DNA from: a virus
Lineage: Duplodnaviria; Heunggongvirae; Uroviricota; Caudoviricetes
Length of the DNA: 51,583 bases
Virus record (IMG/VR): IMGVR_UViG_2512047041_000005
Location: 1 to 51,583 of that record
Reading direction: 5' to 3' (one strand)
Shown here: positions 1 through 46,352 of the stretch, piece by piece
How positions within the stretch are numbered: position 1 is the stretch's first letter
Layout of the letters: every line of letters begins with the position of its first letter
Translations under genes and position numbers: made by a program
Notes under the pieces: generated by a model
What the model was told of the DNA's origin: nothing
The model's database searches: none
Seen by the model: only the letters and a program-made list of their open reading frames with translations

Positions 1-1143
1 CTATGCTGTTTTGATATCTACGATAATCCAGTCTTTACCACGATCATCATTGTATCGGTCGGTCATTTTTCTGGATTTATGGCCTAACAACTTTTGCGTA
101 TCCAGACCCTGTTCCCGATATAACCGTTCTGACAGAGATCGCTGCTCATGAAATGTGGGCGCAGTTCCTGGCTCCCATTTTATGCCACATTTTTCCCTGG
201 CCTTTTTAAAAGCCGTTGTAAGAGTATTTGCAGAAACCTGGTCTCCTCTGTTTGCTTGAGAGGTAGTGTGACGGTAATGGACCAGATATTTACTAACAAC
301 AGCATCCCTGCACTGAGATATAACTTCACGAAGGGTAATATTCAGAGCATCGCATTTCAGGCTAAGCGGAATAGCAAGTTTTGAACCGGTTTTTTCCTGA
401 GTAATGTGCAACATGTCGTCCCATATATCAGAGAATTTCAAATTGCAGATATCGCCTAAACGTTGTCCAGTAACAAGAGCAAGTAGCATGCCGCATTTTA
501 AATAGGGCTGCCGTCTGCTTACGCTTTCAAATATTGCCTGCCATTCGGGCAGTGATAATCTTTGGCGGTTTACTCGATTTCGCGGTTGTTTTGTTGCCTG
601 CGCTGGGTTAAATCCTGGCGGAACATGTCCTGCGTGTTGTGCTTCTTTGAAGACGTCGATCAACACCATTCTCACGACTTGCGCCATCCTGTTATGACCT
701 TCAGCCTTTACAGCATCAATTATTTCGGCAATATCAAGTGCGGTAATATCCTTGAGGTGTTGCATTCCACAATGCTCACGGAAAAGACGAATGGGTTTAC
801 CTTTTTGCCGATAGGAGTTGGGTTTTAGTTCATTATGTTGCAGCCTGTCCTCCTGGATAGAAATATATTTATCAAGCCATTCTGTCACCGTAATGTCTGA
901 GCGCCTGCCTTTCATTCTTTCTAGACGCTCATTGACGCTTAATATTTGTCGGGTACGTTGTTCAGCAATAATGGTATTTGCTTCAGTAGCAACTTGTTTT
1001 GCTTCATTCTCATCAGTTCCTAAGCTATGAAAACGACCGGATAGTGGATGTTTGTATTGCCAATATACCTTTCCGGTTCGCTTATCTAATTTGCAATATA
1101 AATTGGGTATAGAGATTTTGTGAGATCGGGGTCTAGCAGCCAT
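1..1143 (-). CDS. int: Lambdoid tyrosine integrase
   Basis: 380-aa ORF at the prophage left edge; C-terminal catalytic region (HEQRSLSERLY...LGHKSRKMTDRY) typical of lambda-family integrases; xis overlaps its start. Confidence 0.9.
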   Translation of the reverse strand: MAARPRSHKISIPNLYCKLDKRTGKVYWQYKHPLSGRFHSLGTDENEAKQVATEANTIIAEQRTRQILSVNERLERMKGRRSDITVTEWLDKYISIQEDRLQHNELKPNSYRQKGKPIRLFREHCGMQHLKDITALDIAEIIDAVKAEGHNRMAQVVRMVLIDVFKEAQHAGHVPPGFNPAQATKQPRNRVNRQRLSLPEWQAIFESVSRRQPYLKCGMLLALVTGQRLGDICNLKFSDIWDDMLHITQEKTGSKLAIPLSLKCDALNITLREVISQCRDAVVSKYLVHYRHTTSQANRGDQVSANTLTTAFKKAREKCGIKWEPGTAPTFHEQRSLSERLYREQGLDTQKLLGHKSRKMTDRYNDDRGKDWIIVDIKTA

Positions 1144-1369
1144 CAGCGATTATCCGTTGGAGTTTTGGGTTTGCGTTTATTGGGAGTTGCGGTTCTGCAA
1201 GCGTTCCTACAAAACGGGAATTTCGGTCAATCATCCAGTAGCGACCAACTTTTATAGCGGGTGGGGCCATCATTTTCCCTTGCGCGTATTTTTTCAGAAC
1301 TCGCTCACTTGGTGCTAAGTCCCCAAATTCTTCTTTAGCCCAGTCCTGTAAAGTGATTAGTCGAGACAT
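1133..1369 (-). CDS. xis: Excisionase-like protein
   Basis: 78-aa ORF overlapping int start by 11 nt, ATG preceded by GAGGAGGA; resembles excisionase-like proteins of lambdoid prophages. Confidence 0.7.
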   Translation of the reverse strand: MSRLITLQDWAKEEFGDLAPSERVLKKYAQGKMMAPPAIKVGRYWMIDRNSRFVGTLAEPQLPINANPKLQRIIADGC

Positions 1370-1508
1370 TTGTCCTCCTCTTAGCTGCTGAGGGAGTTTG
1401 TGACCGATATATCTGACATGATATTAAGCTCATGGCAGGTACATCTCTTGACTGGTCATAGAGATAAATTTAATGCTGAGAAATGCAGTATTGAATTTAT
1501 CAATTTTT

Positions 1509-1748
1509 CTATTTCCTGCGTATGGCACGTAACTTCTTAATGTGTTCTGCTGTATCGATCTCTTCGGCTATCCGATCTGCATCAGCTTTATTCACAGGTT
1601 CAAAGTCATGATTAAAGCGGAACATGCTGGCGATACATGTTCTGCCTTTTTGGATGTAGTGAACTTTGTTGTGGGTAGAACGCAGGATTTTGCAGGGAGT
1701 GCCGTGGTGGTCGACGTACCAGGTGTTAGGAAAAATGATTCTGAACAT
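1509..1748 (-). CDS. Hypothetical early-region protein
   Basis: 79-aa ORF in the xis-exo leftward operon; no recognisable motif. Confidence 0.45.
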   Translation of the reverse strand: MFRIIFPNTWYVDHHGTPCKILRSTHNKVHYIQKGRTCIASMFRFNHDFEPVNKADADRIAEEIDTAEHIKKLRAIRRK

Positions 1749-1795
1749 TTTTACACCTCAGTTGGACGATGTTGAAATTTGCTGCTTTGAGGCCA

Positions 1796-2014
1796 TTACA
1801 ATCCCCATTGTTTGTTCTTAAGTTCGATCTCCTCCTGGCAACTTGCACAAGTCCGACAACCCTGAACGGCCAGGCGTCTTCGCTCATCTATGGGATCGCC
1901 ACACTCACAACAATGAGTGGCAGATATAGCCTGGTGGTTCAGGCGGCGCATTTTTATTGCTGTGTTGCGCTGTAATTCTTCAATTTCTGATGCTGAATCA
2001 ATGATGTCTGCCAT
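1796..2014 (-). CDS. TraR/DksA-family C4 zinc-finger protein
   Basis: 72 aa with CCECG...C..C zinc-ribbon pattern typical of phage TraR-like proteins. Confidence 0.65.
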   Translation of the reverse strand: MADIIDSASEIEELQRNTAIKMRRLNHQAISATHCCECGDPIDERRRLAVQGCRTCASCQEEIELKNKQWGL

Positions 2015-2112
2015 CTTCCATTAATCCCTGAATTGTTGGTTAATACGCTTGAGGGTGAATGCGAATAATAGAAAAGGAGCCTGTAGCTCCCTGATGATTT
2101 TGCTTTTCATGT

Positions 2113-2328
2113 TCACCGTTCCTTAAAAACGCCGTTTAACATGCCGATCGCTAGGCTTAAATGAGTCGGTGTGAATCCCATCAGCGTTACCGTTTCGCGG
2201 TGCTTCTTCAGTACGCTACGGCAAATGTCATCGACGTTTTTATCCGGAAACTGCTGTCTGGCTTTTTTGATTTCACAATTAGCCTGACGGGCAATGCTGC
2301 GAAGGGCGTTATTATGTTCTATTGTCAT
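2113..2328 (-). CDS. Hypothetical protein (71 aa from internal ATG)
   Basis: Starts 8 nt downstream of the stop of the 250-aa ORF; the upstream part of the 117-aa track ORF overlaps that gene. Confidence 0.4.
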   Translation of the reverse strand: MTIEHNNALRSIARQANCEIKKARQQFPDKNVDDICRSVLKKHRETVTLMGFTPTHLSLAIGMLNGVFKER

Positions 2329-2335
2329 ATTGGCC

Positions 2336-3088
2336 TCACACTTCGAATGCCAGCTGAGGGGTAAAGACGTCCCGTTCAGCGTTGTAATTAAGTGAACTGG
2401 CACTGTTGAATGATTCAATGCGTTCCACAAGAACTTGCGTACGGGTTTCTTTACTTGCGGGAGCATATGGCGAACCTACCCAGGATTTGTCGATGCCTAT
2501 ATTTCTTGCGACGTTCGTGCTGTCTGCAGACGAAAGCGGTACATGAGTAAAAATGTCTTTATTTAACATCCGTAACCCATGAATCTTGGTGATTGGGTAG
2601 CCGTACTGATCTACAACATGACGTATAAGATCGCGTAGTTTAGCCCGACACGCTCTCGGTCGTTTTGCATCGTATTCCCCCATCGAGCCGATGCAGACGC
2701 GGGGAAACTCATGGCACAGACGAATAAATCGCTCATCTGGTTCGTTCATGTGCCACACCGGAGCACCAATAAATTTACCGTGAGGCCATGCCGCAATCAG
2801 GGCGTCATTCTCTTCACTGGTTCCGCCGATAACATCCGGGATAACCGCGAATGAGAAACGAGGGTGATTACCCCAGCGTTCAACAAATCTGTAATATTCA
2901 TTCCAGTCTACGGCCTTGTTTTTTGTCCAGAATGTGAATGCACCATTATCAAGAGCAAATGATTGGGTGACTTCGGAAGCCAGATCAATCTGAGCTGGAT
3001 TAGCAAAACTGATGAATGCGTGTCTGCCTTTCCAGGCTTTCAACGCACAGGTATCGGGAGTTATTGGACCACCGTGAAAATGAATCAT
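2336..3088 (-). CDS. Hypothetical 250-aa protein, possible TGT/DpdA-like enzyme (speculative)
   Basis: Translationally coupled to upstream ORF (ATGA overlap); contains D-N-G-A-F reminiscent of the D-S-G-G-F motif of tRNA-guanine transglycosylases; assignment unverified. Confidence 0.55.
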   Translation of the reverse strand: MIHFHGGPITPDTCALKAWKGRHAFISFANPAQIDLASEVTQSFALDNGAFTFWTKNKAVDWNEYYRFVERWGNHPRFSFAVIPDVIGGTSEENDALIAAWPHGKFIGAPVWHMNEPDERFIRLCHEFPRVCIGSMGEYDAKRPRACRAKLRDLIRHVVDQYGYPITKIHGLRMLNKDIFTHVPLSSADSTNVARNIGIDKSWVGSPYAPASKETRTQVLVERIESFNSASSLNYNAERDVFTPQLAFEV

Positions 3089-3243
3089 ACACTCTCCCGT
3101 TTATTATTTATCTCCTCAGCCAGTCGCTGGGCTTTCAGCGGATTTCGGATAACAGAAGGCCCGGGAAATACCCAGCCTCGCTTTGTAACGGAGTAGACGA
3201 AAGTGATCGCACCTACCCGGATATTATCGTGAGGATGCTTCAT
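3085..3243 (-). CDS. Small ORF (52 aa), lambda orf60a-like
   Basis: [19 protein letters not shown]...; ATGA overlaps with exo stop upstream and the 250-aa ORF downstream. Confidence 0.4.
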
Positions 3244-3920
3244 CGCCATTGCTCCCCAAATACAAAACCAATTTCAGCCAGTGCCTCGTCCATTTTTTCG
3301 ATGAACTCCGGCACCATCTCGTCAAAACTCGCCATGTACTTTTCATCCCGCTCAACCACGACATAATGCAGTCCTTCACGCTTCATACGCGGGTCATAGT
3401 TGGCAAAGTACCAGGCATCTTTTCGCGTCACCCACATGCTGTACTGCACCTGGGCCATGTAAGCTGACTTTATGGCCTCGAAACCACCGAGCCGGAACTT
3501 CATGAAATCCCGGGAGGTAAACGGGCATTTCAGTTCAAGGCCGTTGCCGTCACTGCATAAACCATCTGGAGAGCAGGCGGTACGCATACTTTCGTCGCGA
3601 TAGATGATCGGGGATTCAGTAACATTCACGCCGGAAGTGAACTCAAACAGGGCTCTGGCGTCGTTCTCGTACTGTTTTCCCCAGGCCAGCGCTTTAGCGT
3701 TAACTTCCGGAGCCACACCGGTGCAAACCTCAGCAAGCAGGGTGTGGAAGTAGGACATTTTCATGTCAGGCCACTTTTTTCCGGAGCGGGGTTTTGCTAT
3801 TACGTTATGAACTTCTGAAGCTGTGATGACGCCGAGCCGTAATTTGTACCACGCATCATCCCCCTGTTCGACAGCTCTCACGTCGATCCCGGTACGCTGC
3901 AGGATAATGTCCGGTGTCAT
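3240..3920 (-). CDS. exo: Lambda exonuclease (Red alpha)
   Basis: 226 aa, near-identical to lambda Exo as remembered ([24 protein letters not shown]...GFVFGEQWR). Confidence 0.95.
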
Positions 3921-4702
3921 GCTGCCACCTTCTGCTCTGCGGCTTTCTGTTTCAGGAATCCAAGAGCTTTTACTGCTTCGGCCTGTGTCAGTTCTGACGA
4001 TGCGCGAATGTCGCGGCGAAATATCTGGGAACAGAGCGGCAATAAGTCGTCATCCCATGTTTTGTCCAGGGCAATCAGCAGAGTGTTAATCTCCTGCATG
4101 GTTTCATCGTTAACCGGAGTGATGTCGCGTTCCGGCTGGCGTTCTGCAGTGTATGCGGTATTTTCGACAATGCGCTCGGCTTCATCCTTGTCATAGATAC
4201 CAGCAAATCCGAAGGCCAGGCGGGCACACTGAATCATGGCTTTATGCCGTAACATCCGTTTGGGATGCGACTGCCACGGGCCGGTGATTTCTCTGCCTTC
4301 GCGGGTTTTGCATGGTTCGCGGCGGCATTCATCCATCCACTCGGTAACGCAGATCGGATGATTGCGGTCTTTGCGGTAAATCCGGCATGTACATGATTCA
4401 TTGTCCTGCTCAAAGTCCATACCATCAAACTGCTGGTTTTCATTGATGATGCGGGACCAGCCATCAACGCCCACCACCGGAACAATGCCGTTCTGCTTAT
4501 CAGGGAAGGCGTAAATTTCTTTCGTCCACGGATTAAGGCCGTACTGGTTGGCGACGATCAACAATGCGATGAACTGCGCATCGCTGGCATCACCTTTAAA
4601 TGCCGTCTGGCGAAGAGTGGTGATCAGTTCCTGTGGGTCGACAGAATCCATGCCGACACGTTCAGCCAGCTTCCCTGCCAGCGTTGCGAGTGCTGTACTC
4701 AT
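3917..4702 (-). CDS. bet: Red beta single-strand annealing protein
   Basis: 261 aa, lambda Bet-like ([48 protein letters not shown]...). Confidence 0.95.
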
Positions 4703-4707
4703 CCGTT

Positions 4708-5004
4708 TTATACCTCTGAATCAATATCAGCCTGATGGTGAGCAATGGTTTCAACTATGTACCGGATGTGTTCTGCCATGCGCTCCTGAAACTCAACATC
4801 GTCATCAAACGCACGGGTAATGGCTTTTTTGCTGGCCCCGTGGCGTTGTAAATGATCGATGCATAGCGATTCAAACAGGTGCTGGGGCAGGCCTTTTTCC
4901 ATGTCGTCTGCCAGTTCTGCCTCTTTCTCTTCACGGGCGATCTGCTGGTAGTGACGCGCCCAGCTCTGAGCCTCAAGACGATCCTGAATGTAATAAGCGT
5001 TCAT
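4708..5004 (-). CDS. gam: Gam (RecBCD inhibitor), short form
   Basis: 98 aa [31 protein letters not shown]...; matches lambda GamS; upstream [13 protein letters not shown] is in another frame. Confidence 0.9.
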
Positions 5005-5079
5005 GGCTGAACTCCTGAAAATGGCTGTGAAAATATCGCCCGCGAAATGCCAGGCTGATTAGGAAAACAGGAAAGGGGG

Positions 5080-5223
5080 TTAGTGAATGCTTTTGCTTGA
5101 TCTCAGTTTCAGTATTAATATCCATTTTTTATAAGCGTCGACGGCCTCACGAAACATCTTTTCATCGCCAATAAAAGTGGCGATAGTGAATTTAGTCTGG
5201 ATAGCCATAATTGTTTGATCCAT
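5080..5223 (-). CDS. kil: Kil (host division inhibitor)
   Basis: 47 aa from internal ATG: [47 protein letters not shown], as lambda Kil. Confidence 0.8.
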
Positions 5224-5356
5224 TTTTTGGGACTCCTGGCTGATTGAGTATGTCGATAAGGCGTTTCCATCCGTCACGTAATTTACGGGTGATTCGTTCA
5301 AGTAAAGATTCGGAAGGGCAGCCAGCAACAGGCCACCCTGCAATGGCATATTGCAT
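5192..5356 (-). CDS. cIII: cIII (FtsH inhibitor)
   Basis: 54-codon ORF below the track's 60-aa cut-off: [54 protein letters not shown], overlapping kil start as in lambda. Confidence 0.7.
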   Translation of the reverse strand: MQYAIAGWPVAGCPSESLLERITRKLRDGWKRLIDILNQPGVPKNGSNNYGYPD

Positions 5357-5428
5357 GGTGTGCTCCTTATTTATACATAACGAAAAACGCCTCGAGTGAA
5401 GCGTAATTGGTATGCGGTAACGCCGCGC

Positions 5429-5797
5429 TCAGGCGGCCTTGATAGTCATATCATCTGAATCAAATATTCCTGATGTATCGATATCGGTAATTCTTATTCC
5501 TTCACTACCATCCATTGGAGGCCATCCTTCCTGACCATTTCCATCATTCCAGTCGAACTCACACACAACACCATATGCATTTAAGTCGCTTGAAATTGCT
5601 ATAAGCAGAGCATGTTGCGCCAGCATGATTAATACAGCATTTAATACAGAGCCGTGTTTATTGAGTCGGTATTCAGAGTCTGACCAGAAATTATTAATCT
5701 GGTGAAGTTTTTCCTCTGTCATTACGTCATGGTCAATTTCAATTTCTATTGATGCTTTCCAGTCGTAATCAATGATGTATTTTTTGATGTTTGACAT
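5429..5797 (-). CDS. ea10: Ea10-like protein
   Basis: 122 aa MSNIKKYIIDYDWKASIEIEIDHDVMTEEK...; position after cIII as in lambda. Confidence 0.8.
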   Translation of the reverse strand: MSNIKKYIIDYDWKASIEIEIDHDVMTEEKLHQINNFWSDSEYRLNKHGSVLNAVLIMLAQHALLIAISSDLNAYGVVCEFDWNDGNGQEGWPPMDGSEGIRITDIDTSGIFDSDDMTIKAA

Positions 5798-5917
5798 CTA
5801 TTCATATCCTCATAGATAAAAAATCGCCCTCACACTGGAGGGCAAAGAAGATTTCCAATAATCTGAACCGCCCCGGGAATCCTGGAGACTAAACTTCCTG
5901 AGAAAGAGGTAAACAGG

Positions 5918-6244
5918 ATGACTAAAAATACTCGTTTTTCCCCCGAAGTCCGTCAACGGGCAGTCCGTATGGTTCTGGAAAGTCAGAGCGAATATGACTC
6001 ACAATGGGCGACAATTTGTTCCATTGCTCCAAAGATTGGCTGTACGCCGGAGACTCTGCGTGTCTGGGTTCGCCAGCATGAGCGGGATACCGGGGGCGGT
6101 GATGGAGGGCTCACCACCGCTGAACGTCAGCGTCTGAAAGAGCTGGAACGTGAAAATCGTGAACTGCGCCGCAGTAACGATATCCTTCGCCAGGCTTCCG
6201 CTTATTTTGCGAAGGCGGAGTTCGACCGCCTCTGGAAAAAATGA
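5918..6244 (+). CDS. IS629 transposase OrfA
   Basis: 108 aa HTH/leucine-zipper OrfA ([50 protein letters not shown]...). Confidence 0.9.
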
Positions 6245-7131
6245 TGCCACTGCTGGATAAGCTGCGTGAGCAGTACGGGGTCGGACCGCTATGCAGCGAA
6301 CTGCATATTGCCCCGTCAACGTATTACCACTGTCAGCAACAGCGACATCATCCGGATAAACGCAGTGCCCGTGCGCAGCGCGATGACTGGCTGAAGAAAG
6401 AGATACAGCGCGTATACGATGAAAATCACAAGGTATACGGTGTGCGTAAAGTCTGGCGTCAGTTGTTACGGGAAGGTATCAGAGTGGCCAGATGCACTGT
6501 GGCACGTCTCATGGCGGTTATGGGACTTGCCGGTGTTCTCCGGGGTAAAAAGGTCCGTACGACCATCAGCCGGAAAGCCGTTGCCGCAGGCGACCGCGTA
6601 AACCGTCAGTTCGTGGCAGAACGACCTGACCAGCTGTGGGTGGCTGATTTTACTTACGTCAGCACATGGCGGGGCTTCGTCTATGTGGCGTTCATCATTG
6701 ATGTGTTTGCCGGATACATCGTGGGGTGGCGGGTCTCATCGTCCATGGAAACGACATTCGTGCTGGATGCACTGGAGCAGGCGTTATGGGCCCGTCGACC
6801 GTCCGGCACGGTCCATCACAGTGATAAAGGTTCTCAGTATGTATCGCTGGCCTACACACAGCGGCTTAAGGAAGCCGGATTACTGGCATCAACAGGAAGT
6901 ACAGGCGACTCGTATGACAACGCGATGGCGGAGAGCATCAATGGTCTTTACAAAGCGGAGGTAATACACCGTAAGAGCTGGAAAAACCGTGCAGAAGTGG
7001 AACTGGCCACACTCACGTGGGTGGACTGGTATAACAATCGACGATTGCTGGAAAGGCTGGGCCATACTCCTCCGGCAGAAGCAGAAAAAGCTTATTATGC
7101 TTCCATCGGAAACGATGATCTGGCAGCCTGA
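6241..7131 (+). CDS. IS629 transposase OrfB (DDE catalytic domain)
   Basis: 296 aa rve-type integrase core; overlaps orfA as in IS3-family frameshift pairs. Confidence 0.9.
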
Positions 7132-7173
7132 GTTCACAGATAAAACACTCTCCAGGAAACCCGGGGCGGTTCA

Positions 7174-7295
7174 AAATGATGGGTGATGGTTTCCTTTGGT
7201 GTTACTGCTGTAGGTTTGTTTCCAACAGTAAACGTCTGTTGAGCACATCCTGTAATAAGCATTGCCAGAGCGGCAGAAAACAACATTTTTTTCAT
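7174..7295 (-). pseudogene. bor: bor lipoprotein gene, 3'-truncated by IS629
   Basis: MKKMLFSAALAMLITGCAQQTFTVGNKPTAVTPKETITHHF then reading runs into the IS629 terminal repeat; lambda Bor-like signal peptide and lipobox. Confidence 0.75.
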
Positions 7296-9838: not shown

Positions 9839-10270
9839 ATGCGTAAATTATGTGCTGTTATTCTGTCCGCAGTAGTCTGGCTGGTTGCCGCTGGTACGCC
9901 AGCGAGCGCAGCAGAGCATCAGTCCACACTAAGCGCCGGGTATCTTCAGACCCATACTGATATGCCAGGCAGTGATGACCTGAAGGGCATTAACGTGAAA
10001 TACCGTTATGAATTTACGGACACGCTGGGGCTGGTGACGTCATTCAGTTATGCCAATGCCAAAGATGAGCAAAAAACGCATTACAGCGATACCCGCTGGC
10101 ATGAAGATTCCGTGCGTAACCGCTGGTTCAGCATGATGGCGGGGCCATCTGTACGCGTGAATGAATGGTTCAGTGCTTATGCGATGGCAGGTGTGGCTTA
10201 CAGCCGTGTTTCGACGTTCTCCGGGGATTATCTCCGCGTAACTGACAACAAGGGGAAAACGCACGATGTG
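9839..10270 (+). pseudogene. lom: lom (Ail/Lom outer-membrane protein), 5' fragment
   Basis: Signal peptide and Lom-like beta-barrel N-terminal part; reading leaves Lom homology at about 10270 where the Mu-like element begins. Confidence 0.8.
10265..10270. repeat. Left copy of target-site duplication (ATGTGC)
   Basis: Same hexamer at 47651-47656; boundary is ambiguous by up to 3 nt because the element starts TGA. Confidence 0.5.
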
Positions 10271-10349
10271 CTGATGCGCCGCGCGATAAATGCACTCTAT
10301 CTTGTGCGATAAATGGCATCCACGCGGCGTTTCATTATTTGAAAAAGAA

Positions 10350-10922
10350 TTACATTTCAGGTTGCGTTATGACAGTCCCAACAGGGTGATAGCGGTAGAT
10401 CGTTGACAGTCCAATATCATAGATAATTGCCAGCCGCTTTCTGTCATACCCTTTCTGGAGCAATCTTGCGATCTGCTCATGCTGCTCCTTCGTCAGTTTC
10501 GGGCGACGTCCTCCAACTCTTCCTTGTGCTCGCGCAGCAGCCAGTCCTGCCAGCGTGCGCTCAACTATCAGTTCACGCTCCATTTCTGCCAGTGCACCCA
10601 TCATATGAAAAAAGAACCTTCCCATCGGAGTGCTGGTATCGATTGAATCCGTCAGACTGCGAAAATTGACACCTTTTGCGCGTAACTCTTCTGTGAGAGC
10701 AATGAGGTGTTTCATTCTTCTACCCAACCGATCCAGCTTCCAGACCACCAATGTATCCCCTCTTTTAAGGCACTTTAAAGCGCGTTTCAGGCCTGGTCGT
10801 TCCGACTTGGTTCCGCTCATTTTGTCCTCAAAAATCTGTTCACATCCTGCGCACATTAATGCATTGCGTTGCAAATCTGTGTTTTGGTCATTTGTTGACA
10901 CACGTATGTAGCCAATCAGCAT
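10350..10922 (-). CDS. Serine DNA invertase (Pin/Gin/Hin family)
   Basis: 190 aa from internal ATG: MLIGYIRVSTNDQNTDLQRNALMCAGCEQIFEDK..., close to e14 Pin / Mu Gin; C-terminal HTH. Confidence 0.9.
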   Translation of the reverse strand: MLIGYIRVSTNDQNTDLQRNALMCAGCEQIFEDKMSGTKSERPGLKRALKCLKRGDTLVVWKLDRLGRRMKHLIALTEELRAKGVNFRSLTDSIDTSTPMGRFFFHMMGALAEMERELIVERTLAGLAAARAQGRVGGRRPKLTKEQHEQIARLLQKGYDRKRLAIIYDIGLSTIYRYHPVGTVITQPEM

Positions 10923-10988
10923 TAAAAATACTCCCTTTTGAGTGGTTAAAGTACTGAGATAATGTGGGGAGGATTTGAGAGATAAACG

Positions 10989-11211
10989 TTGGTTTGGGGG
11001 AAGGCTCTGCATTGCCTGTTGGTGTACCGGTTCCGTGGCCCACCGCCACACCGCCAGAAGGCTGGTTAAAGTGCGACGGGCGCGCCTTTACAAAAGAACA
11101 ATATCCTGTTCTGGCCAGAGCCTACCCGACCCTCCGTCTTCCCGATTTACGCGGTGAGTTTATCCGTGGATGGGACGACGGGCGCAAGATTGACGAGGGG
11201 CGTAAGTTGCT
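10989..11211. repeat. Inverted repeat A (~222 bp) flanking the invertible fibre segment
   Basis: About 90 percent identical to the reverse complement of 12384-12605; encodes the shared fibre peptide GEGSALPVGVPVPWPTATPP...GWDDGRK. Confidence 0.8.
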
Positions 11212-11467
11212 TTCATGGCAGAAAGGTACACTGGTCGGCGGTCATGACGATAACGATTCTGCGCTTGATATCTCGTACATGAGTAACGGAAATAATATTG
11301 ACTATGGCGGCGATAAGGTGTTTGCGGGGAATTACCGTAGCGATTATTTGTGGTACGCAGTGCTGGGTGGAACAAACAGTCGCGCAAAAGCCGAATTAAA
11401 CGGAGCATTCTTTAACATAACCCGCCCCCGCAATATCGCGTTTAACTATATCGTGAGGGCGGCGTGA
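10994..11467 (+). CDS. Alternative tail-fibre C-terminal cassette (silent orientation)
   Basis: No ATG (track start is TTG, a Leu codon in the repeat); begins with the IR-encoded peptide and ends NIAFNYIVRAA like the expressed fibre; would fuse to the fibre after inversion. Confidence 0.6.
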   Translation: MGEGSALPVGVPVPWPTATPPEGWLKCDGRAFTKEQYPVLARAYPTLRLPDLRGEFIRGWDDGRKIDEGRKLLSWQKGTLVGGHDDNDSALDISYMSNGNNIDYGGDKVFAGNYRSDYLWYAVLGGTNSRAKAELNGAFFNITRPRNIAFNYIVRAA

Positions 11468-11473
11468 TACCGT

Positions 11474-12088
11474 TCAACTGGCAAGTGCCAGTGGCGCTTC
11501 CGGCCAGCTGATTTCAGGTGCCGTGCTGATATCCAGTGCGTTCAGCTCGTCGATATAATCCAGCACGGCGTTCAGTTTTGCCGTTTCTTCTGGTGTCAGA
11601 CTGCGACCAGCACGCAGTTTGAGGTTGATAAGATCGACGGACGCCATCGCCTGTTTCACCCGTTGCTGGCGTTGCTGTCTGGCAACCTCCAGTTCTGCGG
11701 CTCGCTGCCGTTCAGTATCGGTTACCCACGCCTCACCGTTCCAGGTATCCCATGGCGTGGCTGGCTGTTTTGTGGTGGTGTCCGCCGGGTAATCACCCGG
11801 TTGGGTAATCAGAACGGGGTTACCGTTCTCCGTGCTGTATACCGTCTCGCCGCGGTGATCAGGCACATGCTCCCACCCGTTCAGCGTGGCAGTCCGGCAA
11901 ACCACGTAACCCGAAATTGCCTCCGGCGGTGCATCGGCGCACGAATGTGCCGGAGTACCCACCCCAAGGGCGAGATACTCCACAGAGGATGAGGTGTATT
12001 CCCGGGTTTCCTCGTCATAGTGATATACAGTGATATCGCCCGCTACAGTGGCGATACCGTTTTCATCCAGAACTGCAGTGTTACTCAT
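11474..12088 (-). CDS. Tail-fibre assembly protein (Tfa/U-like chaperone)
   Basis: 204 aa directly downstream of the fibre gene; typical Tfa N-terminus MSNTAVLDENGIATVAGDITVYHYDEETREY. Confidence 0.8.
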   Translation of the reverse strand: MSNTAVLDENGIATVAGDITVYHYDEETREYTSSSVEYLALGVGTPAHSCADAPPEAISGYVVCRTATLNGWEHVPDHRGETVYSTENGNPVLITQPGDYPADTTTKQPATPWDTWNGEAWVTDTERQRAAELEVARQQRQQRVKQAMASVDLINLKLRAGRSLTPEETAKLNAVLDYIDELNALDISTAPEISWPEAPLALAS

Positions 12089-13425
12089 TAAACTGCCCTC
12101 ACAATGTAATTAAGTGCAATGCTACGGGGTCTGACAGTGATACCCTTCGCATACCCGCTTCTGATAGAGGTCAGAATAGTAGCCTGCATACCATTGTCTG
12201 ACATTGCCACGACAGGATCGCTGAATGTTGTCCCGTCCGGCATTTTAAAGCTGCCCTCACGAAGGTCTGTAATGGAATCTTCATTGTTGAATCCCATGCC
12301 GACTATCCCCGAGGTTCCCGTAGTGTCCTGGTTATAATAATCCAGCATTGCTGTTCTTAACAGCGTTGCCCCTTGTGCGGACAGCAACTTACGTCCTGTA
12401 TCAACTTTGCGCCCGTCGTCCCATCCACGGATAAACTCACCGCGTAAATCGGGAAGACGGAGGGTCGGGTAGGCTCTGGCCAGAACAGGATATTGTTCTT
12501 TTGTAAAGGCGCGCCCGTCGCACTTTAACCAGCCTGCTGGCGGTGTGGCAGTGGGCCACGGAACAGGTACACCAACGGGCAGCGCCGAGCCTTCCCCCAA
12601 ACCAAGGTAATTGAGGACATCTTTTATACTGCCCTTAGCGATAATAGCGCGACCAATAGCTGTAAGGGTTGCCAGCGCTGCTCGGTCTGCTCCGGTAAAA
12701 TAAGGCAACCGATCTGCTGCAGTGGCAAGTCCTGCCAGAGCAGTGAGCGTGGCATCTGCCGGTTGTTTTCCGTTTGCCAGATCGTATGCAGCCTTGACCG
12801 CTTTCGGTGTGGCGGCCAGTATTTCAGACGTGCTGTTGATGGCACTGCTCAATTGTACGGTGCCTTTTGCCGTCAGCGAGGCAGCAGGCACTCCCGTTAT
12901 CTGACTCCACGGGTGAGTGTGGCTGACGGGCGCCTTGCCGGCTGCAAGGTCGTATGCAGCCTTGACCGCCTTCGGCGTGGCAGCCTCAGTTTCTGATTGA
13001 CTGTCCGTGGCGCTGCTCAGTTGTACGGTGCCTTTTGCCGTCAGTGAAGCCGCAGGCACTCCCGTTATCTGACTCCACGGGTGAGTGTGGCTGGCAGGCG
13101 CCTTGCCGGCTGCCAGGTCGTATGCAGCCTTGACCGCTTTTGGTGTGGCGGCCAGCGTTTCAGAGGTGCTGTTGGTGGCACTGCTCAGTTGGGTGAACCC
13201 CTTAGCTGTCAGTGTCGCGTCCGGGTGGTTACGGGAACGTACGTGTTCAGCCAGTGACTGTGCGGCTTCCTCCGTTTTCTTCTTCAGCCATTTCGTCCTG
13301 TTTGCCAGTTGCCGGGGGGCTCGATTTGATATCCCGTCTGCACCACCCAGAACCGGATCTGATGTCTCCAGTTGATAGATATTTTCTTCCCACTTTTCTG
13401 TTTCATTCAGGTTTCCCATAATCAA
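12088..13425 (-). CDS. Tail fibre protein
   Basis: Collagen-like/ATPKAVKAAYDLA repeats (168-bp tandem units near 12900-13240), C-terminal NYIVRAV; probable ATG 6 nt inside the track ORF. Confidence 0.85.
   Translation of the reverse strand: MIMGNLNETEKWEENIYQLETSDPVLGGADGISNRAPRQLANRTKWLKKKTEEAAQSLAEHVRSRNHPDATLTAKGFTQLSSATNSTSETLAATPKAVKAAYDLAAGKAPASHTHPWSQITGVPAASLTAKGTVQLSSATDSQSETEAATPKAVKAAYDLAAGKAPVSHTHPWSQITGVPAASLTAKGTVQLSSAINSTSEILAATPKAVKAAYDLANGKQPADATLTALAGLATAADRLPYFTGADRAALATLTAIGRAIIAKGSIKDVLNYLGLGEGSALPVGVPVPWPTATPPAGWLKCDGRAFTKEQYPVLARAYPTLRLPDLRGEFIRGWDDGRKVDTGRKLLSAQGATLLRTAMLDYYNQDTTGTSGIVGMGFNNEDSITDLREGSFKMPDGTTFSDPVVAMSDNGMQATILTSIRSGYAKGITVRPRSIALNYIVRAV
12384..12605. 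repeat. Inverted repeat B, partner of 10989-11211
   Basis: Lies inside the expressed tail-fibre gene at the constant/variable boundary. Confidence 0.8.
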
Positions 13426-14000
13426 CTGCTCCCGTGGTTATAACTGCCATCATGGATGGCAGTATTGTTATAGCGAATGGCCACAGACTGATACTCCAGG
13501 CTGGCCAGATGGCAGCGGGCCGGTGCAAATGCAGCCAGCGTCTGACGCAGCATCGCGGCCTGATCGTTAGTAATGGGCTGTTTCAGAATAACGCGATAAA
13601 CTGCCCAGGCGGCTGCATCTCCATGAACAAACAGTCCGTTATAGCTGCGATTGCCGTCGTAACTGAGACGACCTGTGCCTTCAATCAGATCCACTTCACC
13701 AAAGCCAAAACGGCGGATAACTTCCCGGATTGACCACGGCGTCCCTTTATACCGGTGCAGTTCGATGGCTGCTTTTATAAGCATGCGGCGAACATCGTCC
13801 GATTCCGCCAGCTCCCAGCCATCGCCAGACAGTGAGAACTGCTCGCCCAGCCATGGCAGCGCGGAACTGTCGACGATATCGACGAGAAAGACCATCAGTA
13901 CGCTCAGGTCGATGTTATCCAGCCGTCCTGCCAGTCTTCCCAGCGTCCTGAGACTGATATCACCCTCAAGCGGTGGCGGGAGTTGTAATGGCTCAGTCAT
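13422..14000 (-). CDS. Baseplate protein (P2 gpI-like)
   Basis: 192 aa between the baseplate J-like and fibre genes. Confidence 0.65.
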   Translation of the reverse strand: MTEPLQLPPPLEGDISLRTLGRLAGRLDNIDLSVLMVFLVDIVDSSALPWLGEQFSLSGDGWELAESDDVRRMLIKAAIELHRYKGTPWSIREVIRRFGFGEVDLIEGTGRLSYDGNRSYNGLFVHGDAAAWAVYRVILKQPITNDQAAMLRQTLAAFAPARCHLASLEYQSVAIRYNNTAIHDGSYNHGSS

Positions 14001-15096
14001 CAGACACTCCAGTCATGTTAAGAGTGATTGCCGTACAGTTTGCCCATTCGTTTTCTGCCACCACCCGCAGTGCCGGTGTCACCAGTTCAACCTGGTACAC
14101 CCCGGAAACGGACAATGCACTGATAATCTGGCTGGGGACAATATCGCGCCCCAGCGTGGCGGCACGTGATGCCACCCAGTTCTGTATGGCGCTGTTAGCG
14201 GCATCTTTTACAGACCTGGCATCCTGATCACGATAGATCGTAATCCTGGCTTCAATGGTGTAATCCACCTTCACTGGTGTTTTAGCCCGCACTGTATCAG
14301 TGAGTGGCCTGACTTTCTCATCAGAGCAGAAACTCTCTACCAGCGTGAGAACACCGCCGTCCGGCAGACCGGTACTGAGCAGCGGATACAGATCTACGGT
14401 CCCGGGAACCGGGGAAAGCACAGCAACATCGACAATGTTGGGATGGGCCTGCATGGCATGAAAGCGGTATGCGCCACGGCTTCCGGCATTGGTGAATGAC
14501 TCCGGGGCCAGCCTGATACGCTCCCGGAGCCTGTCATCGTCTTCCTGTTCTGAACCGCCGGAACTGGCCGTCAGATTGCTCACCAGCAGGTCGACGTTAT
14601 CAATCTCATCGAGTAACTGACTGACCTGCGCAGGTTGCCAGCCGTTACCAGCGGTACCGGGTTCGGTACAGGTGGACGTGACATTGACCAGCAGCAATCC
14701 GGCCTTCAGTACCACATCTGTATCGGTGGCAAAAATAACGCTGTCGGAAGCGCTGACGCGGGTGCCTGCCGGGATCAGCACATCAATGGCCAGCGCCTCA
14801 TCTACGGAGAACTGGAGCGTGGTGGTGGCAGGCTGCGCGGCAAGACGGTATACACCAACCAGTTCACCGAGGTAATCAATCATCGGCTCACGGGCAAAGG
14901 CGACCAGATTCTGCTTTGCTGCCTCCTGTACCGCAACCCTGACCAGCATTTCGCGATAGGCCCACAGATCAATCAGCAGACGTTCTGCCTGTGCCGGGTA
15001 CAGCGTTTTGCCGGTATCCGCTTCATACTTCGCAATCATTTCTGCCGTGATTTTGTCGGCATCGCGTTCAATAAAATCGGGTTCTGTCAGCGCCAT
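13993..15096 (-). CDS. Baseplate J-like protein
   Basis: 367 aa; start overlaps the W-like stop (ATGGCGCTGA), canonical W/J arrangement. Confidence 0.8.
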   Translation of the reverse strand: MALTEPDFIERDADKITAEMIAKYEADTGKTLYPAQAERLLIDLWAYREMLVRVAVQEAAKQNLVAFAREPMIDYLGELVGVYRLAAQPATTTLQFSVDEALAIDVLIPAGTRVSASDSVIFATDTDVVLKAGLLLVNVTSTCTEPGTAGNGWQPAQVSQLLDEIDNVDLLVSNLTASSGGSEQEDDDRLRERIRLAPESFTNAGSRGAYRFHAMQAHPNIVDVAVLSPVPGTVDLYPLLSTGLPDGGVLTLVESFCSDEKVRPLTDTVRAKTPVKVDYTIEARITIYRDQDARSVKDAANSAIQNWVASRAATLGRDIVPSQIISALSVSGVYQVELVTPALRVVAENEWANCTAITLNMTGVSDD

Positions 15097-15434
15097 AGCA
15101 GCTCCTGAGTCCGGGTCTGTCCGTCTGAGCCTTTCCAGCTCACCCGGAGCGTAAGATGTTCGCCGTCGACGGCGGGTTTAACTGACATAAGCTGGCAGCG
15201 GGGCTCCCAGCGCCGGATGGCATCGACGGATTCGCGCACCACATGCGGAATGGCCCGGTCTACAGGCTAGTCGATATAAAGATGCAGATTGCTGCCGAAC
15301 TCCGGGCGATGCGGGTCGCTGCCGCGGGGAGTCCGCAGGATAATTTGAATCGCCTGCCGGATATCATCCAGCCCCCGGACAATTTCGCCGGGAGCCTGCA
15401 GGGCTGGTTGCCAGAATACTGAGGTTGTTTTCAT
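15087..15434 (-). pseudogene. Baseplate W-like (gp25 family) gene with in-frame amber codon
   Basis: 116 codons, ATG at about 15432-15434; reads ...FGSNLHLYID-TAG-PVDRAIPHVVRESVDAIRRWEPR...; TAG at about 15267-15269; no ORF of 60 aa or more in the track across this gap. Confidence 0.7.
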
Positions 15435-15488
15435 GGGGGCAGTATTGCCCCCGTGCGGGAACGCTGATATTAAAGGCGTTTAAAAAGC

Positions 15489-16085
15489 TCAGTGGGAGTG
15501 GTGGCTGGAGTTTTCGCCATCAGACAACATACTGCCCGTGGCATGGGCATTCCCTTTAATCTCGATATTGCCATGGATGGTCGCGGTAACACCTTCACCA
15601 CCAGAACCCGCCATGCCTCCTTCGTAAATCAGCTTACCCCTGACACGCAGATCTCCGGTAAGTTCGGTTTCCGGTGCGTCAATCGTGGCTTTCTGTGTTT
15701 TCAATACCACATCAGCACCACACTCAATGACAATATGCTCAATGCCGCCCCGGATGATCAGAGTGTGCGTCTTCCGGTTGTAGCTGTACTCTGCACCATC
15801 AGCAAACCGGGTTCCCCGGATATTTTTGTCACTGAACGGTGGTTTATCGACGTCTGAATACACCGCGCCCAGAATAACACCATCCTCGCCGTTGGCATCG
15901 AGCAGCACCTCAACCTGCTCCCCCACGTCAGGGAGCCAGTAATCTTTGTTATCCTGGGTATTGCGCTGCAGCACGTTAAGCCAGTTTGTGCGCAGGTTAT
16001 CGCATTCAGGCAGACGAACGCGGGCCTGAACCCTGTCGGCATCAACGGCACTGACCGTACCGACCTGACGAGTGACACCAGTCAT
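15489..16085 (-). CDS. Baseplate spike (P2 gpV-like)
   Basis: 198 aa, glycine-rich with histidine-rich C-terminus (SSHHSH) typical of spike apex. Confidence 0.75.
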   Translation of the reverse strand: MTGVTRQVGTVSAVDADRVQARVRLPECDNLRTNWLNVLQRNTQDNKDYWLPDVGEQVEVLLDANGEDGVILGAVYSDVDKPPFSDKNIRGTRFADGAEYSYNRKTHTLIIRGGIEHIVIECGADVVLKTQKATIDAPETELTGDLRVRGKLIYEGGMAGSGGEGVTATIHGNIEIKGNAHATGSMLSDGENSSHHSH

Positions 16086-21854: not shown

Positions 21855-21960
21855 TGTGATGTCAGCAAGTGCGAAACCCCTTGCAGTTACGCAGGAAAGC
21901 GATGAGAAGCGTCTTTCCCTCAGATTTGTCGGTGCCGGAGAACCAGTGGTCGGGAGGCTC

Positions 21961-22143
21961 CTATGCTTCAATCAAATCCTCCAGTTTGCGGGCCTTTGAA
22001 CGTGTGCAGTCAATCGGGTCATTGGTTTTACGGGTATTAAAAAGGGTTTCCACCCCCGGAATATCAAGGAGGGTAAACCACGTACCATTTGACATGCCCA
22101 GTGCCGCACATCGTCCTCCTTTATCCGTCAGTTCAACACTCAC
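21961..22143 (-). CDS. Small hypothetical protein
   Basis: 60-aa ORF starting 3 nt after the tube gene stop. Confidence 0.3.
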   Translation of the reverse strand: MSVELTDKGGRCAALGMSNGTWFTLLDIPGVETLFNTRKTNDPIDCTRSKARKLEDLIEA

Positions 22144-30652: not shown

Positions 30653-32247
30653 CAGAATCCCTCCAGCATACGGGCCGCCTGACGACGACGGCGTGAGCTT
30701 GCCTTCACCGGCCCTTTGTTAATTTCACGGCTGGCGAAATACGCCAGCGCCAGTGCGATGGCTGAATCCCCGTGGCGTTTACCACCGTCAGCCTTTGCTT
30801 TTGAGCGTTGCTCCGGTACGCGGGGGACACCGTTCACCACCTGAACGGCCCGCAGGTCATCCAGTGTGTCTTCATCCTTTGGTAAGTCCACCAGGTTACC
30901 GTCTTCCAGTGCAGCTTTGACCGGAGGCATATGCTCCCGGTACCAGCCTTCGGTTGGCATCACCTGCTGAACCCGGCTGGAGCCGTAGCGCTGCATGGCG
31001 TATTCAGCCAGATAGGCACCATTACCACGGGCATCAAACGCTGCACCCAGCAGACCGGGCAGGCCATCCATCAGATACCAGGTGATTTGCTCCTGCTGTC
31101 TGAACGGCACGTTACGCAGCTCCAGTACGAATGGCACGCGTCGTACCAGGTTCTTCTCCTGCAGCAGGGGATAGTCCACCGACAAATCACCGCTACGGCC
31201 AAAGTCGCGCCCCAGGAAAGAGCGGGCATCAGTGGGGAGTGCCTCCAGCAAGGGTTTCAGATACTCATCAAGCCAGTCCTGCGTCTCGCGGAAGCGAACC
31301 TCATCAGACAGCAGTTCATAACCTTCCTTGCAGGTCAGACGCAATACCGGCGTATCAGCGGACATGCGGGACTCTATCAGGGCACGGGACAGCCAGGCAC
31401 CGCCACCGTTGGCCGGAATACAGTCAAGCTCTTCGGATGCGCCGGCACCGTAGAATTTGTACACCGATGCCATCCAGGCCTGCTCGGATGCCTCCGACCA
31501 TTCCTTCCCGGTGCGCAGACAGACGCGCCGGAACAGCCCCTCAGATACGGCTTCCCGGAAAGTGATGCGATGTATGCTGCCTCCCTGACGTCCGGCACGG
31601 ATATCCCCGATAAGCGTATTGAACGGATTGTCGTCACCGTCATGGGTGGAGATAACGCGTACCTTTCCCCCCCAGATAAGCATCGCCAGCGCCGCTTTCA
31701 GCAGTTCGTCCAGTTGCTCATGGAACGCCGCTTCGTCGATAACAATAATACCCTGACGGCCACGCAGGTTAGACGGGCGGCTGGAGAGCGCAACAATACG
31801 AAAGCCGGAGTCAGGAAATTTGATGGTGTAAGTCTTGATGTGTTTGTCGTCGTCGTCCTCTTCCCAGAATCCTTCTTCAATTTCACTGGCCGCATAGTTG
31901 AATGCCCGTGCCCACATCGCACACGCCTGAATGTATTCGACGGTCATGTCCTGGTTATAAGCGATGTAATACACATTCATCCCGCCTGCTGGCGCAGAAG
32001 AGGCGGCGGTCAGTACGTTATCGGATGCCTCAGCCCATGTAATACCGGTACGACGGCTCTTTTCTATCACCTTAAGCGGAGAGGTGTCTGCCACCCAGCG
32101 CTGCTGGTAAGGCAGCAGAACGGGAGGGGCATCCAGCGCCGAGGTATCAGGCAAAACGGGAGCAAGGTTATTCCTCCCGTCCATGGGACTCATCCCTTCG
32201 GGGCCGCCGCCAGCGGCGTTTAAAATCACTCCGGATGATTTTGTCAT
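30652..32247 (-). CDS. Terminase large subunit
   Basis: 531 aa with ATPase and nuclease regions; precedes portal. Confidence 0.85.
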   Translation of the reverse strand: MTKSSGVILNAAGGGPEGMSPMDGRNNLAPVLPDTSALDAPPVLLPYQQRWVADTSPLKVIEKSRRTGITWAEASDNVLTAASSAPAGGMNVYYIAYNQDMTVEYIQACAMWARAFNYAASEIEEGFWEEDDDDKHIKTYTIKFPDSGFRIVALSSRPSNLRGRQGIIVIDEAAFHEQLDELLKAALAMLIWGGKVRVISTHDGDDNPFNTLIGDIRAGRQGGSIHRITFREAVSEGLFRRVCLRTGKEWSEASEQAWMASVYKFYGAGASEELDCIPANGGGAWLSRALIESRMSADTPVLRLTCKEGYELLSDEVRFRETQDWLDEYLKPLLEALPTDARSFLGRDFGRSGDLSVDYPLLQEKNLVRRVPFVLELRNVPFRQQEQITWYLMDGLPGLLGAAFDARGNGAYLAEYAMQRYGSSRVQQVMPTEGWYREHMPPVKAALEDGNLVDLPKDEDTLDDLRAVQVVNGVPRVPEQRSKAKADGGKRHGDSAIALALAYFASREINKGPVKASSRRRRQAARMLEGF

Positions 32248-32339
32248 GTGGCAATCCCCAGAATCTCGCGACGAAGCGCCTGTACTGCGTCGCTTGACAG
32301 TCCCCCCTTACGGGCAATTTTCTCGGCGTTGCTGGCTGC

Positions 32340-32789
32340 CTACTGCGCTCTGGCCCGTACTTCAGACTGGAACTTTTTGAGGTTGACGGACGCGCGGGAC
32401 AGCGTAGCCACATTCTTCGCCACCTTCGACAGCAGGGCCACGCGTTCTTTAGGATCGACTTCGCCTTCTTCCGCCTCCTGCAACTGGACAATACTCTCGA
32501 ACAGCTCGGTCTGAATAAGGGCTATCACAGCCTCCGAACGCGCATCCTGATCGTCTGCTGCGCCTTCGGTCAGCATGCGGGCCGCTTCTGTTGCCGCACG
32601 GATAGCACCATAGCGGCGCTCAATCTTCTGTCCATAGCGATGGATAGCGGATTTGCTGATGACGTACCCCCGCTCACGCAGCAGGGACTCCAGCTCGTTA
32701 TACCCGCTGAAGCCGGATTCAGTCAGCGCCCGTTCAAGCCAGCGGCGCACGTCTTCCGGCAGCTTTTCTATTGTGCTGCGTCTGGCCAT
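32340..32789 (-). CDS. Terminase small subunit-like DNA-binding protein
   Basis: 149 aa basic/helical protein immediately upstream of the terminase large subunit. Confidence 0.55.
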   Translation of the reverse strand: MARRSTIEKLPEDVRRWLERALTESGFSGYNELESLLRERGYVISKSAIHRYGQKIERRYGAIRAATEAARMLTEGAADDQDARSEAVIALIQTELFESIVQLQEAEEGEVDPKERVALLSKVAKNVATLSRASVNLKKFQSEVRARAQ

Positions 32790-39439: not shown

Positions 39440-41209
39440 ATGAATGCTGCCCTGACTGAACGACTGGTTTATGTCGCCCGCGCGGCACGTGACGCGGGGC
39501 ATGGTAAACGCGGTGCAATATACGACGCTGCCTGTGCTGAACTTGGCATGTCCCGCGCCACTCTGCTGCGCAGGCTGAAGGAGGTCTCTGTGACTGATAA
39601 ACGCAAAAAACGCGCTGATGCCGGACGCAGCGCCCTGACCCGCGACGAAGCCGCGCTGATATCTGCCACACTGCGTGAGGCCACCCGCAAGAACGGTAAA
39701 CGCCTCTATTCCATCGCAGATGCAGTGGAAACCCTGCGGGCTAACGGCTTTATCACCGCAGGCAGAACAGATGAAACCACCGGTGAGTTTTTCCCGTTGT
39801 CTGAAGATGCCATCAGCCGTGCTCTGCGTAACTATGGCCTGCACCCGGAACAACTGGATGCTCCTGCACCGCATACCGAAGTGGCCAGTCTGCACCCCAA
39901 TCATGTCTGGCAGATTGACGCCTCACTCTGCACGCTTTACTACCTGAGCAATGGACATAAAGGGCTGCAGGTGATGGACAGCGCGAAGTTCTACAAGAAC
40001 AAGCCCGCTAACCTTGCCCGTATCGCCAGTGACCGCGTGTGGAGTTACGAGATTACCGACCATGCCAGCGGCTGGATTTACGTTGAGTATGTGACGGGCG
40101 CGGAATCAGGTGAGAACCTGTGTTCTGTGCTTATCAACGCCATGCAGGAGCGTGGCGGCGCAGACGTGCTGCACGGCGTGCCAAAAATACTCTATCTCGA
40201 CCCCGGCTCGGCAAACACCGCGGGTATGACGAAAAACATGTGCCGCTCACTGGGCATCGACCTGATAGCGCACAAGCCGCATAACGCCCGCGCCACCGGA
40301 CAGGTGGAAAAGGCGCGGGACATTATCGAACGCAAGCTGGAGCCGGGTCTGAAGTTCCGGCCGGTTCACAGTCTGGAAGAACTCAATGCGCTGGCCGCGA
40401 AATGGCGCAGCCACTTTAACGCCACGGCTGTTCACAGCCGCCACGGTAAAACCCGCACGGATATCTGGCTGAAGATTACTGCTGAGCAGCTGAAAAAAGC
40501 GCCTTCCGTTGAGGTATGTCGTGAACTGGCTGTGGCGGCACCAGAACTCCGCAAAGTCACGCCAAAACTTCGTGTCTCGTTCCGGGGCACTGAATTTGAC
40601 GTATCAACGGTACCGGGCGTACTGGTCGGTGAAAAACTGATGATTACCCGTAACCCGTGGCGCAGCGATGTGGCACAGGTGGTTCTGACCGGTGAGGACG
40701 GCCACGAGACGTTCTTCCTGGTCGAAGAAGTCAGAAAGAACGAGTTTGGCTTTGCTGAAGGCGCGGCGGTATTTGGCGAAAGTTACAAAGCCCTGCCGGA
40801 AACCCCGGCGCAGATGGCGGCAAAAGAAACCGAAGCGCTGGTCACCGGTACAGACAACGCCGCAGATGCAGCTGCCGCACGCAAGGCGAAGGCGCTGCCG
40901 TTCGGCGGGCGGCTTGACCCGTATAAACATATTGATGACGCCACACTTCCGGCCTATATGCCGAAGCGAGGTCAGGCCTCTGACGTACGCGGGTCGCGCA
41001 CTGAACAACGTCCCATGACTCATGTGGAGGCCGCGAAAGCCCTGCGCGATAAGTTCAGCGCCGACGGCCTTACCTGGACGCCGGAACATTACCGCCAGTT
41101 AACGGCACAGTATCCGGACGGCGTACCGGAAGCCGCACTGGATGAAGTCATGGCCACGCTGACCACGCCGGCCCGCAGCAGCGTTATCAGCATTGTTAAC
41201 GGCAACTGA
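39440..41209 (+). CDS. DDE transposase (rve-type core, not MuA-like)
   Basis: 589 aa, rve-like core (HPNHVWQIDASL...DPGSANTAGM...HNARATGQVEKA); followed by overlapping B-like ATPase. Confidence 0.8.
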   Translation: MNAALTERLVYVARAARDAGHGKRGAIYDAACAELGMSRATLLRRLKEVSVTDKRKKRADAGRSALTRDEAALISATLREATRKNGKRLYSIADAVETLRANGFITAGRTDETTGEFFPLSEDAISRALRNYGLHPEQLDAPAPHTEVASLHPNHVWQIDASLCTLYYLSNGHKGLQVMDSAKFYKNKPANLARIASDRVWSYEITDHASGWIYVEYVTGAESGENLCSVLINAMQERGGADVLHGVPKILYLDPGSANTAGMTKNMCRSLGIDLIAHKPHNARATGQVEKARDIIERKLEPGLKFRPVHSLEELNALAAKWRSHFNATAVHSRHGKTRTDIWLKITAEQLKKAPSVEVCRELAVAAPELRKVTPKLRVSFRGTEFDVSTVPGVLVGEKLMITRNPWRSDVAQVVLTGEDGHETFFLVEEVRKNEFGFAEGAAVFGESYKALPETPAQMAAKETEALVTGTDNAADAAAARKAKALPFGGRLDPYKHIDDATLPAYMPKRGQASDVRGSRTEQRPMTHVEAAKALRDKFSADGLTWTPEHYRQLTAQYPDGVPEAALDEVMATLTTPARSSVISIVNGN

Positions 41210-42386: not shown

Positions 42387-42388
42387 TA

Positions 42389-43777: not shown

Positions 43778-43786
43778 GGGCGCGGC

Positions 43787-44993: not shown

Positions 44994-45101
44994 TTACGCT
45001 ATCAGGTAACAGCCGGAAATTAAAAGCCTGCCGAATATCTGCCAGATACCTTTTTGCCCGCGCCTTTTTTAAGAACGTCAGGCCGGGGATCACTGTAGTG
45101 G

Positions 45102-46352
<1,251 letters not shown>

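Follow-up and report, generated by a model that had tools for sequence, protein, structure and literature searches.

A natural amber mutation in the baseplate gene gpW of a BcepMu-like prophage from a small Escherichia coli lineage

The baseplate gene gpW of the BcepMu-like transposable prophage carried in the 51,583-nt stretch of DNA analysed here (the window) is interrupted at codon 56 by an amber TAG codon (15269-15267, minus strand). The stop is genuine: a nonsense mutation (Trp to stop) that has been inherited within one small Escherichia coli lineage. The gene is already flagged in RefSeq as "pseudogene, internal stop" both in strain IAI39 and in AR_0013. Two further amber codons are found in the same prophage, and the lesions very probably represent ordinary decay by mutation in a resident prophage that has ceased to be under selection for making virions.

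The interrupted gpW gene and its intact alleles

The gpW gene occupies 15087..15434 on the minus strand, and translation of this frame from 15434 gives 116 codons with a single internal stop (MKTTSVFW...NLHLYID, stop, PVDRAIPHVV...ELLWR, stop). The terminal TGA (15089-15087) overlaps the start of a baseplate J-like gene, whose ATG (15096-15094) lies 10 nt inside the end of gpW. An in-frame amber in a 116-codon frame ending at such an overlap was what the original prediction had proposed, together with the remark that no ORF in the mechanical ORF list crosses the stop; all of this was confirmed, the list giving only two separate pieces, 15267..15434 (55 aa) and 15087..15242 (51 aa, with a GTG start). 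When the stop was replaced, one Pfam GPW_gp25 (PF04965) match was obtained across the TAG, covering residues 21-98 and scoring 48.7 bits, where the curated gathering cut-off is 27.2 bits. Comparison of gpW with the intact alleles of JJ1886 and PhiKM revealed only one different base, at gene nucleotide 167. Because the match spans the stop and the intact alleles differ by that single base, the frame is not a chance open frame. The same two observations bear out the further claims that both halves are protein-like and lie in the same frame, that the gene belongs to the gp25/gpW family of baseplate genes, and that the interruption is a nonsense mutation rather than a frameshift. Judged by its broken reading frame, gpW is a pseudogene of the GPW/gp25 family and not a functional member of it.

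The gp25/gpW proteins are baseplate wedge and sheath-initiator subunits. The gpW sequence was assigned to PHROG_43, baseplate wedge subunit (E 3.9e-34), and matches among proteins of known structure were the R-pyocin sheath initiator PA0617 (6u5b, E 1.2e-10) and T4 gp25 (5iw9/5iv5, E about 4.5e-4), as well as Afp9 and Pvc9. The aligned portions of PA0617 and T4 gp25 reach well beyond residue 56 of gpW. Truncation removes residues 56-115, among them the segment W76-E77-P78-R79, which is invariant in the family alignment. Residue 56 itself varies across the family, being W in E. coli and in Klebsiella KP12, Y in Salmonella and M in BcepMu; the equivalent residue in P2 gpW we take to be Q.

The gene stands where a baseplate gene of this family would be expected, between the intact spike (gpV-like) gene upstream (15489..16085, minus strand; Pfam Phage_base_V) and the J-like gene (13993..15096, minus strand; Pfam Baseplate_J, 232 bits), beyond which is an intact tail protein I-like gene (13422..14000, minus strand; Pfam Tail_P2_I, 87 bits). 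An AGGAG (15106-15102) of its own precedes the ATG of the J-like gene by 5 nt, so that translation of J need not be coupled to that of W, and some polarity of the gpW stop on the downstream genes is possible. The next in-frame start after the stop is the GTG at 15242, which has no Shine-Dalgarno sequence upstream; reinitiation there was judged irrelevant, since the product would be no more than a C-terminal piece of 51 aa. A G+C-rich hairpin with a stem of 7 bp, GGGGGCA-ATAC-TGCCCCC (15435-15452, minus strand, read by eye), abuts the gpW ATG within the 54-nt spacer between V and W. It is not followed by a run of T, and there is no obvious Shine-Dalgarno sequence at normal spacing before the gpW ATG; the hairpin may be a translational control or mRNA-stability element.

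At codon 56 the intact alleles of JJ1886 (ST131), Escherichia phage PhiKM, ECA64 and AH20I049 all have TGG. Because the intact copies carry TGG, the lesion is a change from TGG to TAG, that is, G>A at window position 15268. The CAG to TAG origin put forward in the original prediction was thus ruled out, TGG being found in every intact allele examined, although the comparison with W homologues in related prophages that had been recommended there did establish that the TAG is derived. The 521 bases around gpW match 635 of 5,426 complete E. coli genomes, about 580 of them at 99% identity or above, and only IAI39 and AR_0013 at 100%. A probe of 41 nt with the variant base in the middle, and hence within every possible 28-mer seed, found the TAG allele in the same two of the 5,426 genomes, equivalent to 2 of the 635 that have the gene, while a 55-nt gpW probe returned 583 records with exactly one mismatch. 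The possibility that resequencing would yield a sense codon has effectively been answered, TAG being present in the window and in two independent complete genomes.

The prophage, its insertion site and the sister ambers

The whole prophage extends from 10272 to 47650, with its late genes on the minus strand, and was delimited from its ends, a 6-bp duplication and its gene content. Its termini, TGAT...ATCA, are flanked by the duplication ATGTGC, and it interrupts lom in a lambdoid prophage remnant adjoining icd. Removal of the element together with one ATGTGC copy joins the two parts of lom (9839-10271 and 47651-47823, plus strand) in frame. Insertion by transposition is indicated by the 6-bp duplication, by the TGAT...ATCA termini and by the occupation of a different site in ECA64. 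The gene content, taken from the RefSeq annotation of the identical IAI39 prophage, is of Mu type (transposase, MuB-like ATPase, Gam, gp16 and Mor) and includes Mu gp27/28/29-like head genes and a P2-like contractile tail. This combination of Mu-type replication and regulation genes with a P2-like tail module is that of Bcepmuvirus, to which the closest phage record, PhiKM (PQ738613), is also classified; nucleotide identity to BcepMu itself is about 70% over V-W.

Two lesions in the prophage besides that in gpW were overlooked in the original prediction, which was right about the gpW amber and to that extent incomplete. Three "internal stop" pseudogenes are annotated by RefSeq in the IAI39 prophage; the window has the same three, and the stop is TAG in each. 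The small terminase gene terS (32244..32789, minus strand; Pfam Phage_Mu_Gp27, that is, Mu gp27/DUF3486; RefSeq "internal stop") has its amber at codon 150 (32342-32340, minus strand), where CAG has become TAG (Q150), which truncates the product by 32 residues. A probe for this allele matches IAI39 and AR_0013 only. The third amber is at codon 61 (21963-21961, minus strand; TGG to TAG, W61) of hyp94, a gene of 93 aa and of unknown function (phrog_1239) located between the tail tube and tail chaperone genes (21862..22143, minus strand). The hyp94 amber allele occurs also in ECA64, a dairy isolate from France, and hyp94 may be dispensable, since the amber is shared with that otherwise intact prophage at a different site. 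The ancestral sense codons of all three ambers were read from PhiKM; comparison of 22 late genes with those of PhiKM gave 26 synonymous, 16 nonsynonymous and three nonsense codons, and no indels in these genes.

The window copy additionally carries, in the early region, an IS3-family insertion sequence of 1,258 bp (45094..46351) flanked by a 3-bp duplication, CAC. Its ends are TGTAGTGG...CCACTACA, and it interrupts a small early prophage gene. This element is absent from IAI39 and ECA64; at the matching place AR_0013 has a group II intron as well as an IS3-family fragment. Decay is evident in the lambdoid remnant too: its large terminase gene is truncated, and an IS3-family element lies close to iss, which is also truncated. 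In strain N32 (NZ_CM165895.1, 2173240-2192790) the counterparts of window positions 1-7177 and 40000-51583 are only about 0.8 kb apart, and N32 seems to have lost about 32 kb, comprising the entire Mu-like late region and part of the lambdoid remnant, while keeping the early region.

The tail-fibre region is also variable. A 1,620-bp segment (10986-12605) is inverted in the window with respect to IAI39, AR_0013 and ECA64, and adjoins a gene for a Gin/Cin-type recombinase (about 10350-10922, minus strand); it looks like an invertible host-range switch resembling the Mu G segment, caught in the other orientation. With the segment oriented as in the window, a fibre assembly gene (11474-12088) comes after the fibre ORF (12088-13425) and points the same way. 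The fibre gene contains tandem repeats (12383-13191) with a unit of about 168 bp (...ATPKAVKAAYDLAAGKAP.SHTHPWSQITGVPAASLTAKGTVQLSSA...), and the fibre is 445 aa long in the window, 586 aa in ECA64 and 686 aa in IAI39, so that repeat copy number appears to differ between strains.

Order of events and alternative explanations

The prophage of ECA64 is near-identical, with 10 differences in 32,126 bp, and it is inserted at a different chromosomal site (lptF/ytfJ) with terS and gpW both intact. It follows that the terS and gpW ambers postdate the insertion into lom; and, since ECA64 has the hyp94 amber at its own site, that the phage was still mobile when carrying it. With substitutions polarised by means of AH20I049 and PhiKM, the branch leading to the common ancestor of the window, AR_0013 and IAI39 copies has exactly three substitutions in 32 kb, namely terS Q150am, hyp94 A55E and gpW W56am, two of the three being ambers. 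Between the ECA64 copy and the copy to which the two stops have been added there are five substitutions in 32 kb, these three on the IAI39-clade branch included. On the coding strand the branch changes are C>T, C>A and G>A, with no common signature, and hypermutation by a single process was rejected.

Later changes are few. The window has two nonsynonymous and two synonymous private changes, as does IAI39, and a single missense change, in the MuB-like gene, is common to the window and AR_0013. If a cluster of changes in the fibre is set aside, AR_0013 has two private missense changes and a TTA>TGA stop. This stop affects codon 39 of a hypothetical gene close to the repressor region (equivalent to window position 36261, where the window has a sense codon); this is a fourth nonsense event in the prophage lineage. 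With the AR_0013 fibre cluster left out, the private changes that followed the branch number about seven nonsynonymous or nonsense to four synonymous, and from their type they look unconstrained and roughly neutral; for the deeper divergence from PhiKM the figures are 26 synonymous to 16 nonsynonymous.

The concentration of stops on the clade branch raises the question of whether host-level selection for the loss of virion production favoured them, rather than their being neutral. A random substitution in the block would create a stop with a probability of 0.031 under a uniform model, 0.024 if only transitions are considered and 0.043 for G:C>A:T changes, and the unconditional probability of at least two stops among the three branch changes, both in virion genes, is then 0.002-0.005; the private TGA in another prophage gene of AR_0013 points the same way. 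However, the gpW lesion was picked for being a stop, and for that reason the conditional value was used: given one stop, the probability of at least one further stop among the other two changes rises to 0.05-0.085. The counts are, besides, very small. The excess of stops on the branch is therefore suggestive at most, and two stops out of three are indistinguishable from chance once the selection of the finding has been allowed for. Nor is it easy to see what the host would gain, because the genes for transposition and lysis (transposase, MuB-like, holin, transglycosylase and spanin) look intact in sequence, and stops in virion genes would leave an induced cell unprotected. Host selection of the nonsense mutations is accordingly thought unlikely; and the broader proposition that the clustering of stops is not due to chance, whether through selection in the lysogen against virion assembly or through a past natural amber-suppressing host in which TAG was tolerated, is regarded as decidedly unlikely.

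It is very improbable that the ambers are suppressed by a suppressor tRNA of the host lineage, such that the prophage, despite its three ambers, would still yield full-length proteins and functional virions. Each of the internal stops is TAG, the phage with the hyp94 TAG has evidently moved between hosts, as shown by its other site in ECA64, and several amino acids are tolerated at residue 56 across the family, all of which would be in keeping with suppression. Yet TAG accounts for 44% of all reachable nonsense substitutions in the block, and for 67% of those reachable via transitions, so three TAG out of three (P = 0.08-0.30) is not unusual, and the all-amber pattern was rejected as a sign of anything special; hyp94, with no known function, may simply be dispensable; and no tRNA gene was found in the 51,583-nt window. 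To search for suppressors, 41-nt probes bearing a CTA anticodon were built from MG1655 glnV/X, tyrT/V, tyrU, serU, trpT and leuX, the tRNA genes one step from a CUA anticodon. The concatenated probes match 159 genomes. Among the matches listed (60 of the 159) nearly all are K-12 laboratory derivatives or recipients that match the Gln probe, including C600, DH5alpha, DH1 and J53, while the Tyr probes match OV2, so that laboratory supE/supF strains were detected as the expected positive control. The search was then repeated with the addition of a 55-nt gpW-TAG tag, so that IAI39 and AR_0013 ranked first, and each of these gave one matching place, which was the gpW tag itself. Canonical single-step CTA-anticodon alleles of Gln, Tyr, Ser, Trp and Leu tRNAs are thus absent from IAI39 and AR_0013, the two genomes tested, with probes of a kind that would miss a divergent tRNA or an unusual suppressor. 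A search of the literature on natural amber suppressors produced nothing usable. The original prediction had been that the tail is probably defective unless the host carries an amber suppressor: the defect is supported as a prediction, and the canonical suppressor that might have relieved it is missing from both strains.

That the gpW stop is a conserved functional site of readthrough or recoding, and not a lesion, is extremely improbable. E. coli is not known to possess machinery for pyrrolysine. The stop is a derived state, restricted to a single small clade (2 of the 635 genomes that have gpW), and it is not conserved across species, the corresponding residue being W in Klebsiella, Y in Salmonella and M in BcepMu. 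There are reports of bacterial in-frame stops maintained by purifying selection (PMC7918605), but in the same study (Belinky et al. 2021) such stops were commonest in mobilome genes, where the excess was put down to pseudogenes, as many of them were suggested to be.

Sequencing or assembly error in a gene that is really intact can be as good as dismissed: a single-base difference from hundreds of otherwise identical alleles would fit an error, but three independent sequences (the window, IAI39 and AR_0013) have the same base, the last two were assembled independently and each shows other differences from the window at private prophage sites, and the other two prophage ambers are distributed in the same way. 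Outside the prophage core the window further differs from these genomes in its IS content and in the orientation of the fibre segment.

Consequences and comparison with known systems

On the favoured reading, decay of the resident prophage proceeded as follows. After insertion of the phage into lom of the resident lambdoid remnant, a spontaneous G>A transition turned Trp56 (TGG) of gpW into an amber codon in the ancestor of the small lineage to which IAI39, AR_0013 and the window's strain belong, and the mutation was then inherited vertically. The 55-residue product lacks the C-terminal half of the fold, the invariant WEPR included, and should be unable to nucleate assembly of the baseplate wedge and sheath, with the result that no tails would be made. 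With terS truncated too, packaging is probably impaired, and no infectious particles would be expected; the terS amber beside that in gpW means that the predicted defect covers packaging as well as the tail. The phenotype envisaged is that of an inducible, possibly still lytic element giving no infectious particles, and we infer both it and the loss of gpW function from the sequence. Basal readthrough of UAG could give traces of full-length gpW, and since W, Y, M and Q all occur at residue 56 in the family, gpW read through with a different amino acid there might be functional.

In practice, the tail, and probably also DNA packaging, should be scored as non-functional in the IAI39-type lineage, and it would be wrong to list the prophage among intact, inducible phages or to regard it as a source of tailocin-like particles. 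The gpW lesion has little significance past correct annotation. The pair formed by ECA64 and the IAI39 clade is a clean, polarised example of the first steps in prophage decay, and might be used as a natural control in work on how prophages are inactivated.

The closest systems are PhiKM and the ST131 prophages of JJ1886 and EC958, which share 98.5-99.7% nucleotide identity with the window prophage over most of the genome and have the same gene order. They are likewise Mu-type elements with a short target duplication, and they differ in that terS, hyp94 and gpW are open, whereas the window copy has the ambers and the IS3-family insertion. With the family of P2 gpW, T4 gp25 and PA0617, gpW has in common the V-W-J-I order of the surrounding baseplate genes and the conserved TP.GS...GS and WEPR segments; unlike these proteins its frame is broken at codon 56, leaving 55 N-terminal residues only, and P2 gpW presumably has Gln at residue 56 where the intact E. 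coli alleles have Trp. The classical amber mutants of phages, studied with supE/supF hosts, are alike in having TAG codons in essential late genes; the prophage ambers, in contrast, are natural, IAI39 and AR_0013 are without the canonical suppressor alleles, and nothing points to conditional expression. Finally, the prophages of IAI39 had already been placed among the defective prophages of E. coli by De Paepe et al. 2014 (PMC3945230), and the present element resembles these as a vertically inherited prophage with inactivating lesions. In IAI39 its 32-kb core can be aligned gap-free with the near-intact copy of ECA64, and this core contains no transposase gene in the RefSeq annotation, so that the three point nonsense mutations are the lesions seen in the IAI39 prophage.
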